Shown here: in pieces, positions 4,406 to 11,022 of the stretch
Numbering within the stretch: the stretch's first letter is position 1
Layout of the letters: the number at the start of each line of letters is the position of its first letter
Source of the DNA: a virus
IMG/VR virus record: IMGVR_UViG_3300035698_008634
Direction: 5' to 3' (one strand)
Length of the DNA: 13,566 nucleotides
The notes under the pieces: generated by a model
Database searches by the model: none
What the model was told of the DNA's origin: nothing
Seen by the model: only the letters and a program-made list of their open reading frames with translations
Made by a program: the position numbers and the translations under genes

Positions 4406-4449
4406 AACATTTACCTCATTCTTTTTTATAAATAAAAACAATAAATAAA

Positions 4450-4752
4450 ATGGCTGATACATTAGGTGGTTTAATTGATAAATTATTAACCGTTGATTTA
4501 AAAATGTGGAATAATCAAGAGACATTATATCAAATAAGAAAAATGACTTTTGATGAATATAAGACGAAATATTTCGACACTGAAGATGGTGCGAAAATTT
4601 TATGGGAACAATTAAAAAAAGCAACAGATCTTAATTTTCAAAGGAATCAATTAATTGATGAAATCGATGATTTAATTGTCACTATGATTGAGAAAGGTGC
4701 CGATAAAGAAAGTTTGGAACCTTTTATCCAACGAAAACATAAGACATATTAA
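4450..4752 (+). CDS. Hypothetical small acidic protein, 100 aa.
   Basis: ATG-initiated ORF that fills the gap between neighbouring genes on the same strand. Predicted helical (LIDKLLTVDLKMWNNQETLYQIRKM...). No family recognised. Confidence 0.5.
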   Translation: MADTLGGLIDKLLTVDLKMWNNQETLYQIRKMTFDEYKTKYFDTEDGAKILWEQLKKATDLNFQRNQLIDEIDDLIVTMIEKGADKESLEPFIQRKHKTY

Positions 4753-4786
4753 AACTTGGACTTGGATGAAAAAATGATAAATTTTA

Positions 4787-5866
4787 ATGATACCGATATA
4801 TAAACCATATTTGCCTGATCACGTAACAAAATATGCACACGACGCAATAGATTCGACATGGATATCAAGTAGTGGTGATTATTTAAATAAAACAACAAAT
4901 AAAATAAAAGAGTTATTTGGATATAAATATGTTCTATTAACAAATAATGGCACAACAGCCTGTCATCTAATGTCAATTGGGTTGAAATATAAATATCCAA
5001 ATATAGAGGAAATTATAGTTCCCAACAACGTATATGTTGCTGGTTGGAACGCGTTTAAAATGAATCCCGTATACAAATTCACACCAATCGATTCTGATAT
5101 AAATACTTGGAATTGTGATTATAATTCGATTGATCCAAAAGGTGAGTATACATTTCTAATAATTCATAATATAAATTCTATAATAAATGTTCCATTGTTA
5201 AAAGAAAAATATCCAAATAGTATAATTTTAGAAGATAACTGTGAAGGGTTTTTGGGGAAATATAATGGAAAATATACAGGTACAGAATCTCTAATATCAA
5301 CAGTCTCTTTTTTTGGAAATAAAAATATAACATCTGGTGAAGGGGGTGCGGTCATGTTTTCTGATCCTGATCTTTTTGATTATTTAAATTCTGTTAGGTG
5401 TCAAGGTTGTACAGATAAGAAGTTTATATTTGATAAATTGGGGTATAATTATAGAATGACTAATGTTCAGGCAGCTCTTATTTATGGTCAATTGTTGAAT
5501 TTGGAAGAAATAATTGAGAGAAAACAGAATATTATCGATTCATATAATAAACATTTAAATCACGAAAAAATAGTTTTTCAAGAAACTGATAAAAATACTG
5601 ATAGATCAAATTGGATGTGTGGGGTGAGATTTGAAGGTTTTGAAGAAATAGATTTGAAGAAATTGGAATTGATATTGTTTGAAAACGGTATAGAGACAAG
5701 AAGAATGTTTCCACCAATTAATTATCACAAACATTATGAAAAAGAGGTTAGTATAAATGATAATTCTAAAATCATATATGATTCGAGTTTAATTCTTCCT
5801 AGTTATCCAGAATTAAATGAATATCAGATAAGTAAAATATGTGATATTATAAAAAAACAATTATAA
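4787..5866 (+). CDS. DegT/DnrJ/EryC1/StrS-family PLP-dependent sugar aminotransferase. Candidate GDP-4-keto-6-deoxy-D-mannose 4-aminotransferase (GDP-perosamine synthase-like).
   Basis: The N-terminus MIPIYKPYLPDHVTKYAHDAIDSTWISSSGDY...KELFGYKYVLLTNNGTTACHLMSIGL matches the family pattern (IP...P.L...E..A...VL.SGW...G....FE..FA...G.KYA..V.SGT.AL.LAL). SFFGNKNITSGEGGAVMFSD contains the catalytic Schiff-base lysine (SFxxxKxxxxGEGG). YNYRMTNVQAALIYGQL matches the family's NYRM...AA.G..QL motif. 359 aa, the usual size. Confidence 0.85.
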   Translation: MIPIYKPYLPDHVTKYAHDAIDSTWISSSGDYLNKTTNKIKELFGYKYVLLTNNGTTACHLMSIGLKYKYPNIEEIIVPNNVYVAGWNAFKMNPVYKFTPIDSDINTWNCDYNSIDPKGEYTFLIIHNINSIINVPLLKEKYPNSIILEDNCEGFLGKYNGKYTGTESLISTVSFFGNKNITSGEGGAVMFSDPDLFDYLNSVRCQGCTDKKFIFDKLGYNYRMTNVQAALIYGQLLNLEEIIERKQNIIDSYNKHLNHEKIVFQETDKNTDRSNWMCGVRFEGFEEIDLKKLELILFENGIETRRMFPPINYHKHYEKEVSINDNSKIIYDSSLILPSYPELNEYQISKICDIIKKQL

Positions 5867-5937
5867 AATGATATCATGTAGATAAATAAAACAAATCTCT
5901 GTTTTAGATATAAATAAGAAAAAAACAATCAATTAAG

Positions 5938-6237
5938 ATGGAAACAGAAAAAATTAAGAATGGACTTCCAGATATTAAAGTTTTGGAAATAAACAAGGAA
6001 TATTTGATAATAGATAAGCTCAAAAATAAAACAACTAGAGAGGTGCAAAAAATCAAATTAGTAAGAGAATCGAAAACCTCTTTTCTTATATCATTTAAAC
6101 CTGATAACCTTTTCGGTATTGTAATTGATGAGGATGAATGGTTGTTAAAACATGAATTTTTTGAAAGATATCAAATAGTTGAAGAATTGAATGCCGGGAA
6201 TTATGTTGTGACTGATACAAATGTTGTTGATATGTAA
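5938..6237 (+). CDS. Hypothetical protein, 99 aa.
   Basis: ATG ORF. Its stop overlaps the next start as TAATG (6235-6239). No family recognised. Confidence 0.45.
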   Translation: METEKIKNGLPDIKVLEINKEYLIIDKLKNKTTREVQKIKLVRESKTSFLISFKPDNLFGIVIDEDEWLLKHEFFERYQIVEELNAGNYVVTDTNVVDM

Positions 6238-6557
6238 TGAAACCACTAAAAAATGAATTAACGGTTGTTGGTACAATAACATCGAAACAAATCAGAGATT
6301 GTTTGGTTGATTTGGCCAGACAACCATTTGGTTGTTGTGTTAGATATAAAGATGGGACATTTCATCAGGTTACAATAGATTCAAATGATGAAATAAAAAT
6401 AGAAGATTATGATCCTTGGTTTGAATGTGAAAATGAAAACGAATTGAAAAAATACATAGAAACAAACAATGAGGAATTTTATAATTTTGTAAGATGGCAA
6501 GAGTTACAGAACATATTTGATGATGAGGAAATAAATGATGACATTTTTGAAAAATAA
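6237..6557 (+). CDS. Hypothetical acidic protein, 106 aa.
   Basis: ATG ORF translationally coupled to the upstream ORF through a TAATG overlap. Glu/Asp-rich C-terminus. No family recognised. Confidence 0.45.
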   Translation: MKPLKNELTVVGTITSKQIRDCLVDLARQPFGCCVRYKDGTFHQVTIDSNDEIKIEDYDPWFECENENELKKYIETNNEEFYNFVRWQELQNIFDDEEINDDIFEK

Positions 6558-9404: not shown

Positions 9405-9455
9405 GAAAATAATATATAGTGGTTAAGATACACGTTTAAAAATAAAAATGTTAAA

Positions 9456-9884
9456 ATGAAAAAATCTTATGAAAGTTTAATAAAAGAAAATATCAACAAG
9501 AATTTGTTTGATGTTGAATTTCAATTTGAGAACTTAACACAGAATGAGAAAAAATTATTACAAGATTATATAAGTAAAGTGACTGATAATATGATGGAAT
9601 TTGAATTACAATCTGTTGATAAAACAATTCAACCATTAGGAGTTCTAATTAAATTGAAAAATAATAAATTAACGGGTGATGTTTTCATTAAGATGAAAGA
9701 CAAAGATGAGGTTATTTTAGGTATTTTTAAATTTGAAAAATTAAAAGTTACTGAAATAAATAATCTAATAGATTTCGATTTTGGTGGGGATTGGAAACCC
9801 AATAGTCAAAATCTCACTATAAACTTTGTATTTGATGAAATTTTGTATTCCGATGATGGAAAAAAATATGAAAAACTTTCATAA
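9456..9884 (+). CDS. Hypothetical protein, 142 aa.
   Basis: ATG ORF in the co-directional array. No recognisable motifs. Confidence 0.45.
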   Translation: MKKSYESLIKENINKNLFDVEFQFENLTQNEKKLLQDYISKVTDNMMEFELQSVDKTIQPLGVLIKLKNNKLTGDVFIKMKDKDEVILGIFKFEKLKVTEINNLIDFDFGGDWKPNSQNLTINFVFDEILYSDDGKKYEKLS

Positions 9885-9939
9885 AAATACAACTTATATC
9901 CTTTTTACACTATATAAATAATAAATTCAATTATAAAAA

Positions 9940-10353
9940 ATGAAAATGATTAAATCGTATCAAGACTTTGCGGGGGATATTGAAGAAGTGAGAGGTGAGG
10001 ATGCTCACGATTTGTTATCTTCAAGTTCTTCAAGTTCTTCAAATTACATTAATAATAATCATAGTTGTGCGTCAATAACTCAACCACCACCAAAAGAAGA
10101 TGGTGTTTGGATCGAACATGGGAATCACAAAACCAAGATCCACACACAACCCAGTTGGTATGATGGTATATGGAATCAAACACCCGCTAAACCAAGAAAA
10201 TCAACATATATTGAACAAAAATCAGTCGATAAATATAATATTGAGAAACCAAAAACAGAACAATTTACAAAATTCCAAAAATGGTCAATCGGTATAGGTC
10301 TTGGCACTTTAATAGTAGGAACCATTACAATTATTGTACTATTGATGCTTTAA
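9940..10353 (+). CDS. Hypothetical tail-anchored membrane protein with a poly-Ser tract.
   Basis: A C-terminal hydrophobic segment WSIGIGLGTLIVGTITIIVLLML sits at the extreme C-terminus. A Ser run (SSSSSSSSN) is encoded by 3 tandem copies of tcttcaagt at 10018-10044. A Pro/Gln/Thr/Lys-rich middle separates the two. Confidence 0.5.
   Translation: MKMIKSYQDFAGDIEEVRGEDAHDLLSSSSSSSSNYINNNHSCASITQPPPKEDGVWIEHGNHKTKIHTQPSWYDGIWNQTPAKPRKSTYIEQKSVDKYNIEKPKTEQFTKFQKWSIGIGLGTLIVGTITIIVLLML
10018..10044 (+). repeat. Tandem 9-nt repeat (tcttcaagt x3, the last copy 8/9) encoding a serine homopolymer.
   Basis: Read directly: tcttcaagt tcttcaagt tcttcaaat. Confidence 0.8.
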
Positions 10354-10372
10354 AAAATAATCACAATCGTTA

Positions 10373-10894
10373 ATGCAGATTTTAGTTACACCAAGTGATC
10401 TTATCAAAAGATGTTTGTGGTTGGGATATCAAAGATATTTCTTAACCGCACCAGACCCAATTACGGGAAAAAGAAAACTTAAATCAAAAGAACAAATAAC
10501 AAAATTTATTCAAGAGGATAAACCTATGGTCTTAAAAGAGGAGGACGCTTTTGTTATTGGTCTCCTTAAAGTTGTTGAGACATCAAACATAGTTCATAGA
10601 TTTAAGGATCATATCGAAGAATATTTAAAAATAAGAAGCACTATCATAAATAATAGACTTTGGATATTTAAAAATCTAATTTTAAAAGAAATAATCACCT
10701 TTAAAGATTGTTTCCCAGATGAATATAATCCACCTTTTGAATATAAAAAAGGAATAGAGGATTTGAAAAAATTTATAGACAATCTATATGCTGGGATTGA
10801 TAAAATAGAGGCTACAAAAATACCAGATAAAGATGGAAGAATGAAAGATTATGTTTCTTCCAATCAAGTAAAAAATATGTTGTCTGATAAATAA
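10373..10894 (+). CDS. Hypothetical protein, 173 aa.
   Basis: ATG ORF that begins 19 nt after the previous stop. No family recognised. Confidence 0.45.
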   Translation: MQILVTPSDLIKRCLWLGYQRYFLTAPDPITGKRKLKSKEQITKFIQEDKPMVLKEEDAFVIGLLKVVETSNIVHRFKDHIEEYLKIRSTIINNRLWIFKNLILKEIITFKDCFPDEYNPPFEYKKGIEDLKKFIDNLYAGIDKIEATKIPDKDGRMKDYVSSNQVKNMLSDK

Positions 10895-11022
10895 ATAAAC
10901 TTTAAATTATTTTTTTCCTACAATAAACGTACAGATCATTTCTAATAGAATATTGTGAGGTGTATGTAGACAGTGTATTTAGGAAATACGAAATTATTAA
11001 TTATATAAACAAATAAATTATT
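10895..11022. promoter_or_regulatory. Longest intergenic spacer in the array (128 nt). Presumed promoter region of the major vault protein gene.
   Basis: Candidate -10-like TAGAAT at 10946-10951. TTGTGA at 10953-10958 plus 17 nt plus TATTTA at 10976-10981. TATATAAAC box at 11002-11010, 12 nt before the ATG. No Shine-Dalgarno sequence within 15 nt of the ATG. Confidence 0.3.

Follow-up and report, generated by a model that had tools for sequence, protein, structure and literature searches.

TATA-type boxes at operon heads in a fragment of a Mahaphage-type huge phage: probable late promoters of the T4 kind

Introduction

The virus record IMGVR_UViG_3300035698_008634 of IMG/VR, a stretch of 13,566 bp with a G+C content of 21–35% (the whole of which is called the window below), carries the 8-bp word TATAAATA three times in the short spacers upstream of its genes. 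What, if anything, reads these boxes? An earlier, sequence-only reading of the window had listed them, together with TATAAAC and TATATAGA upstream of two further genes, as a candidate promoter or initiator element, and had judged them to fit either an AT-rich nucleocytoplasmic virus or Bacteroidetes-style initiation. Every box and ATG coordinate that it gave is correct (Table 1); the word itself was not recognised as the textbook consensus of the bacteriophage T4 late promoter. In T4, gp55 reads the late box together with gp33 and the sliding clamp gp45.

A promoter-type element is indeed the best reading of the box. We consider it probable that the TATA-type boxes of the window, namely the three TATAAATA copies, TATAAACA, TTTATATAG, AATATATAG and a TATAAA cut by the window end, are together late promoters of gp55 type, with a −10 element only, in a Mahaphage-type huge phage that infects Bacteroidota. 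The argument is made from sequence, and proceeds from the relatives of the window, through the box that dominates their upstream regions and the sigma-like protein that they encode, back to the window itself.

Results

Relatives of the window are huge phages with T4-like genes

The major-vault-protein-like gene at the right of the window was used as the marker for finding relatives. Its product had 4908 homologs (E ≤ 0.001), many of them on phage contigs of 200–736 kb; the best matches showed 72% identity on contigs of 597 and 737 kb, and 67% in LR756501, a 735-kb ‘uncultured phage’. Gene order around the vault-like gene is common to the window and its relatives. The latter are huge phages, and their portal, capsid, terminase, sheath and replisome genes are T4-like. 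T4-like genes of LR756501 include those for DNA polymerase, clamp loader, gp46, gp32, RNase H and UvsW. The largest genome reported by Al-Shayeb et al. (2020, PMC7162821) is 735 kb, all genomes above 634 kb falling in the Mahaphage clade, with Bacteroidetes as predicted hosts. Judged by its genes, the window comes from a Mahaphage-type huge phage of a Bacteroidota host and not from a nucleocytoplasmic virus. Matching of an exact 42-mer of the window against viral, metagenome and genome contigs, and of the identical vault-like protein sequence, returned nothing from the phage itself. LR756500 (locus L003) was also tried as a comparison and set aside as too distant (49% identity), with a different repeated promoter region: between 31900 and 42400 it has small minus-strand genes, each following a near-identical stretch of about 40 nt (sense TTATTATATTTATATAACAATTAAATAATTATACA-ATG).

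A strand-specific box precedes many genes of LR756501

Upstream words were examined across all 735,411 bp of LR756501, in which 953 open reading frames (ORFs) were called and 443 genes had a spacer; for these, the 45 nt upstream were analysed by k-mer enrichment, strand bias and spacing counts, in place of a de-novo EM search, which had wandered off towards GC-rich words and was discarded. A strand-specific word, TTAATATATA, dominates upstream. The box AATATATA occurred upstream of the 443 genes 112 times in sense compared with 11 times in antisense orientation, and 187/290 of its copies were intergenic, in a genome of which intergenic sequence makes up 8%. Its core is almost invariant. A subclass in which the box is followed by G (ATATATAG/TATATAG) gave 62 sense and 7 antisense occurrences. 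Among the genes so headed are a gp23-like capsid gene, two terminase-like genes and neighbouring head genes. In LR756501 the box often follows terminator hairpins. Moreover, of the copies in the 74 upstream regions of seven further related loci, 17 were in sense and 0 in antisense orientation. In relatives, the related word AATATATA behaves like a promoter on a genome-wide scale; the exact word TATAAATA is not enriched there.

Spacing from the end of AATATATA to the ATG was bimodal in LR756501, being exactly 5 nt in 22 genes and 14–27 nt in most others. Counted from the A of the ATG, the box of the 5-nt class spans −13 to −6, which is where the T4 late box stands relative to its start site, and leaderless mRNAs are implied. 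Sites of this class (for example 132542, 264295, 290078 and 459463) follow the pattern AATATATA(G)NNNN-ATG. Several of the proteins concerned have MxKxYxxFxE-like N-termini and DPYGEE(D/E)W or VRWYKKGKL repeats in common, and so resemble a multigene family. Around a dozen small tandem genes lie on the minus strand of LR756501 at about 552000–556000, each following a coding repeat, ‘gatccttacggtgaagaa..tgg’ (DPYGEE.W), which ends the previous gene; the run has the appearance of a tandemly amplified small-gene family.

Two further upstream elements were seen in LR756501. The first, (A/T)TGGAAAAAAATGAC followed by a T-run, has its GG exactly 24 nt before AATATATA in 11/187 sites (Table 1), and could be an activator site or a −35-like element of a promoter subclass. 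It is absent from the window's spacers, as is the upstream element GGAAAAAAATGAC, which is real in LR756501. The second, TATCTTTG(TA), was found 16 times in upstream regions (for example at 79616) against 0.6 expected, and matches the Bacteroidetes −7 box TAnnTTTG; such boxes probably mark early promoters read by the host enzyme, and their presence supports a Bacteroidota host.

The relatives encode a miniature gp55-like protein

Just upstream of its gp4-like, portal and capsid genes, LR756501 has an ORF for a protein of 124 aa that belongs to a well-conserved family (A1, P0121–P0213) of 93 metagenomic proteins, all annotated as hypothetical. One member, P0164, comes from the contig of the relative closest to the window and is encoded there beside Portal_T4 and Gp23 genes. 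Aligned by hhalign, the family matched gp55 with 94.9% probability (E = 4.5e-8) over gp55 residues 6–107, and its profile, run against all PDB sequences, returned T4 gp55 (7d7c_F) first (E = 0.0029). An AlphaFold model of the 124-aa protein (pLDDT 81) likewise had 7d7c_F as its best fold match (probability 1.00, TM 0.64), followed by the region-2 domains of sigma-S, sigma-32 and sigma-E. Taken with the box, this makes it very probable that the Mahaphage clade runs a late programme of T4 type with AATATATA as its late box.

At the C-terminus of the gp55-like proteins there is a conserved tail, (M)ISLDSxNDGxGxHNI, predicted to be disordered, which resembles the clamp-binding SLDFL tails of T4 gp55 and gp33. 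A gp44-like clamp loader is present in LR756501 (4e-20). No sigma-70 homologue was found there with an RpoD C-terminal probe (best E = 1.7), nor did a DFDGD regular expression detect the RNA polymerase active-site motif NADFDGD.

Boxes of the window stand at orthologous positions

Start and stop codons of many window genes overlap, so that the genes form operons, and most of the boxes can be set against the corresponding site in relatives. The box at 5909 heads the operon 5938-6237-6535-6717-7856-8745, and the dehydratase operon of LR756501 is likewise headed by TATAAATA, 32 nt upstream. The box at 9913 heads a separate operon, 9940-10894; in LR756501 a copy of TATAAATA lies in the spacer that follows the ortholog of 9456-9884. 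Upstream of the vault-like gene, where the window has TATAAACA, LR756501 has ATTATAAACA and the related locus L030 has ATTATAAACC (all three of the TATAAAC type), and L021 has TATAAATA itself. The L019 ortholog of the gene at 4450 has TTTTTATAAAA where the window has its box, and AATATATA 38 nt upstream.

Two boxes had escaped the sequence-only reading. At 9411 lies AATATATAG, which is identical to the main box of the clade; its first 8 bp (9411–9418) agree with the clade-box core, but the distance of 37 nt to the ATG is longer than usual, the orthologs of 9456 having AATATATAG 22 nt upstream in L019 and TATATAG 21 nt upstream in LR756501. Also overlooked was the TATAAA at the very end of the window. 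Where (ga)TATAAA stands in the window, 13 nt after ‘aaactaa’, loci L019, L021 and L029 have AATATATA, and a dihydrofolate reductase gene begins 15–19 nt further on. The box near 2900, finally, contains TTTATATAG at 2897–2904, which falls just short of the clade-box definition. The boxes at orthologous sites (the dehydratase operon head, after the 9456 ortholog, before the vault-like gene and past the terminator) support function.

In the surroundings of the boxes, T-runs were the only common flank; no hexamer near −35 was shared, and the 10 nt downstream of each box were 80–100% A/T. An exact AATATATA also occurs on the minus strand at 4395–4402, in the 3′ end of gene 3371–4405 and inside a near-palindrome, TTAATATTATATATTTAA (also 4392–4397). 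It could drive antisense transcription or be a chance occurrence.

Enrichment of the exact word, and whether chance would account for it

Spacers of the window hold three exact copies of TATAAATA and one 7/8 copy, TATAAACA, all in sense orientation. Over the whole window the word was observed 9 times against 4.3 expected, a weak excess (6/200 shuffles reach 9), and 3/9 copies fall in 612 nt of sense upstream spacer whereas the coding sequence, about 13 kb, has 5 in sense, a 12.7-fold difference in density. A first-order Markov model of the spacers predicts 0.36 copies (P(≥3) = 0.006), and dinucleotide shuffles give P = 0.003 for the word as named beforehand. The sequence-only reading had staked its box on such enrichment upstream of starts; the greater density was borne out, but the motif had been picked post hoc, and some 8-mer recurs in at least three spacers in 85% of shuffles. 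With a word chosen after reading, and shuffles so often producing another, the window alone cannot establish significance.

Chance combined with mis-registration is the alternative that has to be weighed most closely here, and we regard it as unlikely, if well short of negligible. It would hold that TATAAATA is meaningless, that the real promoters are boxes of the AATATATA/TATATAG type (at 9411 and 2897, and as 7/8 matches at 9909 and 11000), and that the boxes at 4427 and 5909 are nothing or weak sites. AT-rich spacers (80–87% A+T) do yield such words, and two of the five copies in coding sequence, at 4922 and 4988, are simply Tyr-Lys-Tyr codons, which had been overlooked. The box at 9913 overlaps ACTATATA (9909–9916) and TATAAACA overlaps ATTATATA (at 11000), both 7/8 matches to the clade box. 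Yet TATAAATA is found in 3/10 upstream regions of the window compared with 19/517 in relatives (Fisher P = 0.006); each of its three copies is sense-oriented and stands at an operon head, 15–21 nt from the ATG; and those at 4427 and 5909 have no good alternative AATATATA register, although both operons need a promoter. The copies at the dehydratase operon head and after the 9456 ortholog in LR756501 speak in the same direction. By a rough hand estimate, placement within the relatives' range of 13–27 nt adds about P = 0.03 (for spacers of 44, 71 and 55 nt).

Several results nevertheless weigh against taking the boxes as late promoters, and should be set beside those above. In LR756501 the exact word is unenriched (17 sense copies compared with 17.6 expected), as it is in the pooled seven further loci (2 sense, 1 antisense), and single-mismatch variants of AATATATA are unenriched in LR756501 too. 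At the capsid gene of the closest relative, TATAAATA is a by-product of AATATATA followed by AATA, in the register of LR756501. The high frequency with which shuffles produce a recurring 8-mer belongs here as well. On the side of the protein, the first gp55 searches were weak (6-sequence profile E = 0.46, filters-off phmmer E = 0.064, PHROGs E = 0.19), default phmmer with T4 gp55 gave no match at E ≤ 10, and it took a profile built from the target family itself, and the fold search, to make the link convincing. T4 gp33 and gp45 gave no phmmer match in LR756501 (gp45 best E = 0.73), a result that does not imply absence, as small proteins diverge fast. Finally, the genes of the window, for sugar modification and the vault-like protein, are not known virion genes, and ‘late’ is for them a presumed label.

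The three TATAAATA boxes differ from the clade consensus at positions 1 and 5, and so lie outside the clade-box definition. The consensus in the window's phage may have shifted towards that of T4, or the true boxes may be overlapping sites of TATATA type.

A possible second class of phage promoter

TATAAATA might instead be read by another phage factor, such as a middle-phase regulator, that serves the sugar-modification and vault-like module separately from the late class of AATATATA. Both box types do occur in the window, 500 nt apart (9411 compared with 9913), and TATAAATA is present in 2 of about 5 upstream regions of the orthologous module of LR756501 compared with 3.8% genome-wide; in addition, a 15-mer, TATAAATATCATAAC, is common to the vault-like promoter of L021 and the dehydratase promoter of LR756501. 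That 15-mer does not recur elsewhere, however; TATAAATA shows no genome-wide enrichment that would mark out such a class; the search for sigma factors gave no second sigma-like protein; and the two box types replace each other at orthologous sites. We hold a separate class to be improbable.

Translation signals and other polymerases

Could the boxes instead act in translation? An A/U-rich box might form an unstructured landing site for ribosomes, or a Kozak-like enhancer, for initiation without Shine–Dalgarno sequences; PMC6847099 describes Bacteroidota mRNAs as lacking these and depending on A-rich unstructured leaders, and the boxes lie within 21 nt of ATGs. The initiator half of the earlier proposal is, however, very unlikely. 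Boxes head operons only, and the eight internal genes of the window that have no spacer have no box either, although they are presumably still translated. The exact 5-nt spacing in 22 genes of LR756501 fits a transcription start rather than a ribosome site, the box also follows terminators, and a 10:1 strand bias with an invariant core is the mark of a DNA-recognition site. The lack of Shine–Dalgarno sequences that had been reported stands for the three genes with TATAAATA but not for the gene at 2925, which has AGGTGA 5 nt upstream. Short leaders without such a sequence fit a Bacteroidota host, as do the clade and the TATCTTTG boxes of LR756501, and the Bacteroidetes-style option is to this extent retained.

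Reading by the host polymerase alone (through Bacteroidota sigma-A or a sigma-70-like −10 TATAAT), or a late TATA element of a nucleocytoplasmic virus, is extremely unlikely, although TATAAA resembles the −10 hexamer of sigma-70 and many giant viruses are as AT-rich. TAnnTTTG has 29 matches in the window (25 expected) and 0 in the upstream spacers. A two-hexamer scan for sigma-70 −35/−10 pairs showed no enrichment (121 sites compared with 99 ± 10 in shuffles), in agreement with the earlier remark that the spacing is not that of sigma-70. Gene content, overlapping operons, an intrinsic terminator and relatives that are all tailed phages, with T4-like genes, are at odds with a nucleocytoplasmic virus. 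The Mimivirus early octamer AAAATTGA had been reported as absent from the intergenic spacers, correctly, since it occurs only inside the coding sequence 3371–4405; its near-match TAAATTGA at 13543–13550 was read directly. Of the readings considered, gp55-type late promoters remain the one that we favour.

Genes and other features of the window

The window begins with its one long minus-strand gene, followed by 14 genes on the plus strand; intergenic sequence, with genes as delimited here, amounts to 590 nt (A+T 69–87%). Scans with Rfam and for tRNAs detected no known RNA family and no tRNA in the window. Coordinates are collected in Table 1.

Table 1. Positions of boxes, genes and other elements in the window and, where stated, in relatives.
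Feature	Position	Strand	Remarks
Methyltransferase and family-2 glycosyltransferases fusion gene	2–2824	−	Sole long minus-strand gene
TTTATATAGA box	2897–2906	+	TTTATATA ends 20 nt before ATG 2925; TATATAGA at 2899–2906
GNAT acetyltransferase gene	start 2925	+	
Gene for 344-aa protein, function unknown	3371–4405	+	
TATAAATA box	4427–4434	+	15 nt before ATG 4450
DUF4254-like protein gene	start 4450	+	100 aa
DegT-type aminotransferase gene	start 4787	+	
TATAAATA box	5909–5916	+	21 nt before ATG 5938; heads the operon of the genes that start at 5938 to 8745
Three small genes of unknown function	starts 5938, 6237, 6535	+	
GDP-mannose 4,6-dehydratase gene	start 6717	+	
Methyltransferase gene	start 7856	+	
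Four genes of unknown function	starts 8745, 9456, 9940, 10373	+	
AATATATAG box	9411–9419	+	Identical to the main box of the clade; 37 nt before ATG 9456
TATAAATA box	9913–9920	+	19 nt before ATG 9940; within ACTATATAAATA at 9909–9920; heads 9940–10894
TATAAACA box	TATAAAC at 11004–11010	+	Within ATTATATAAACA at 11000–11011; 11 nt before ATG 11023; 7/8 copy of the T4 late consensus TATAAATA
Major-vault-protein-like gene	11023–13491	+	822 aa; Pfam MVP_shoulder 7e-26, Vault_3 3e-11
Intrinsic terminator	13507–13531	+	11-bp stem and T-run; ends the transcription unit of the vault-like gene; kept in L019, L021 and L029
TATAAA box cut by window end	13561–13566	+	30 nt past the terminator
gp55-like 124-aa ORF	LR756501 69450–69824		Just upstream of gp4-like, portal and capsid genes
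TGGAAAAAAATGAC element sites	LR756501 66779, 73881, 76387 (capsid gene), 243448, 284952, 367622, 344571, 207542, others; L032 8461, 14081, 16642		

A sugar-nucleotide module extends over positions 2–8734, with the GDP-mannose 4,6-dehydratase, the DegT aminotransferase, the GNAT acetyltransferase, two Methyltransf_24 domains and several family-2 glycosyltransferase domains. These enzymes would suit the making and transfer of an N-acetylated 4-amino-6-deoxy sugar. The vault-like protein also has an SPFH/band-7 signature and a vault-repeat signature, and its gene appears to be near-universal, and unexplained, in this group of huge phages. Upstream of it, the window's subclade has a 128-nt spacer with a G+C-richer core (10950–10985) and no hairpin. 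Another subclade has a conserved hairpin, then A9 and GCAAT-ATG, the stems differing compensatorily (L001 at about 9950–10000, LR756501 at about 19610–19660, L030 at about 9950–10000 and L031 at about 7970–8017).

Discussion

If the boxes are late promoters, the following mechanism can be proposed. A small phage sigma of gp55 type, comprising the region-2 domain only, would bring the core RNA polymerase of the host to a TATA box of 8 bp, located at about −13 to −6; there would be no −35 element, and transcription would begin some 6 nt past the box. The resulting A/U-rich leaders, of about 6–18 nt and without Shine–Dalgarno sequences, would be translated in the Bacteroidota manner. For the box at 4427, for instance, the start site is predicted near 4440, with a leader of about 10 nt that has no Shine–Dalgarno sequence. 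Each box would head one operon, internal genes being translationally coupled, and the unit that ends in the vault-like gene would be closed by the terminator at 13507–13531. The sigma gene is seen in relatives, from which we infer that the window's phage carries one as well, and that its product reads these boxes and accepts TATAAATA.

A more detailed picture may be entertained, though tentatively and with some doubt: a T4-like late programme run on the Bacteroidota polymerase by a miniature gp55, whose ISLDS tail may bind the clamp, with dozens of leaderless mRNAs, and with drift of box recognition between lineages (AATATATA in LR756501 and seven other loci, the T4-like TATAAATA in the window's phage) as an instance of sigma–promoter co-evolution.

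As a kind of element the box is a textbook one. Its occurrence alongside a miniature gp55 in phages of the Mahaphage type appears to be undescribed; no published description of their AATATATA upstream box was found in the literature searched. To our knowledge, nothing has been established experimentally on the timing of gene expression in the largest phages (>600 kb, uncultivated, with Bacteroidota hosts). Were the late-promoter reading true, the T4 mechanism of late transcription would extend far beyond the recognised T4-like families and into another host phylum, and sequence alone would suffice to annotate late genes, operon boundaries and leaderless genes across hundreds of genomes of huge phages. 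The 124-aa sigma would provide a small reagent that can be tested in transcription in vitro with the polymerase of Bacteroidota. A simple map of transcription units follows from the reading for the window.

Comparison with known systems

Jumbo phages of the phiKZ and AR9 types have promoters that are read by phage-encoded multisubunit RNA polymerases. A short AT-rich consensus close to the start site, and a very large phage genome, are points in common with the present case; LR756501 differs in having no NADFDGD-type motif and in having a gp55-like sigma instead. Bacteroidetes sigma-A promoters are of the form −33 TTTG / −7 TAnnTTTG. With these the window would share the host polymerase core (probably) and short leaders without Shine–Dalgarno sequences, but its boxes have no TTTG half.

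A further comparison is with the AATATATA box of the Mahaphage-type huge phages. Clade, place relative to genes and orthologous positions are the same, and the window has both an exact copy (9411) and TTTATATAG (2897), whereas its three main boxes differ at the two positions already described.

The T4 late promoter has an 8-bp TATA box, TATAAATA, at −13 to −6, with A tolerated at −13 (PMC2988020). The window's boxes share with it an identical 8-bp sequence, the lack of a −35 element and an A/T-rich segment downstream; the T4 position is implied by the 5-nt class of the related box in LR756501, and the boxes of the window stand 11–21 nt before their ATGs. Relatives, moreover, have a gene for a gp55 homologue, and their portal, capsid, terminase, DNA polymerase, clamp-loader and gp32 genes are T4-like. 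The differences are that the host phylum is Bacteroidota and not Proteobacteria or Cyanobacteria, that the sigma has 124 aa in relatives compared with 185 aa in T4, with gp33 and gp45 not recognisable, and that the clade consensus is AATATATA, with T at box position 5, rather than TATAAATA. Many clade transcripts would also be leaderless or very short in their leaders, without Shine–Dalgarno sequences, and a subset of promoters has the upstream TGGAAAAAAATGAC. Even so, the T4 variants and the clade box differ from TATAAATA at only one or two positions, and all can be brought under the common description WATAWATA.

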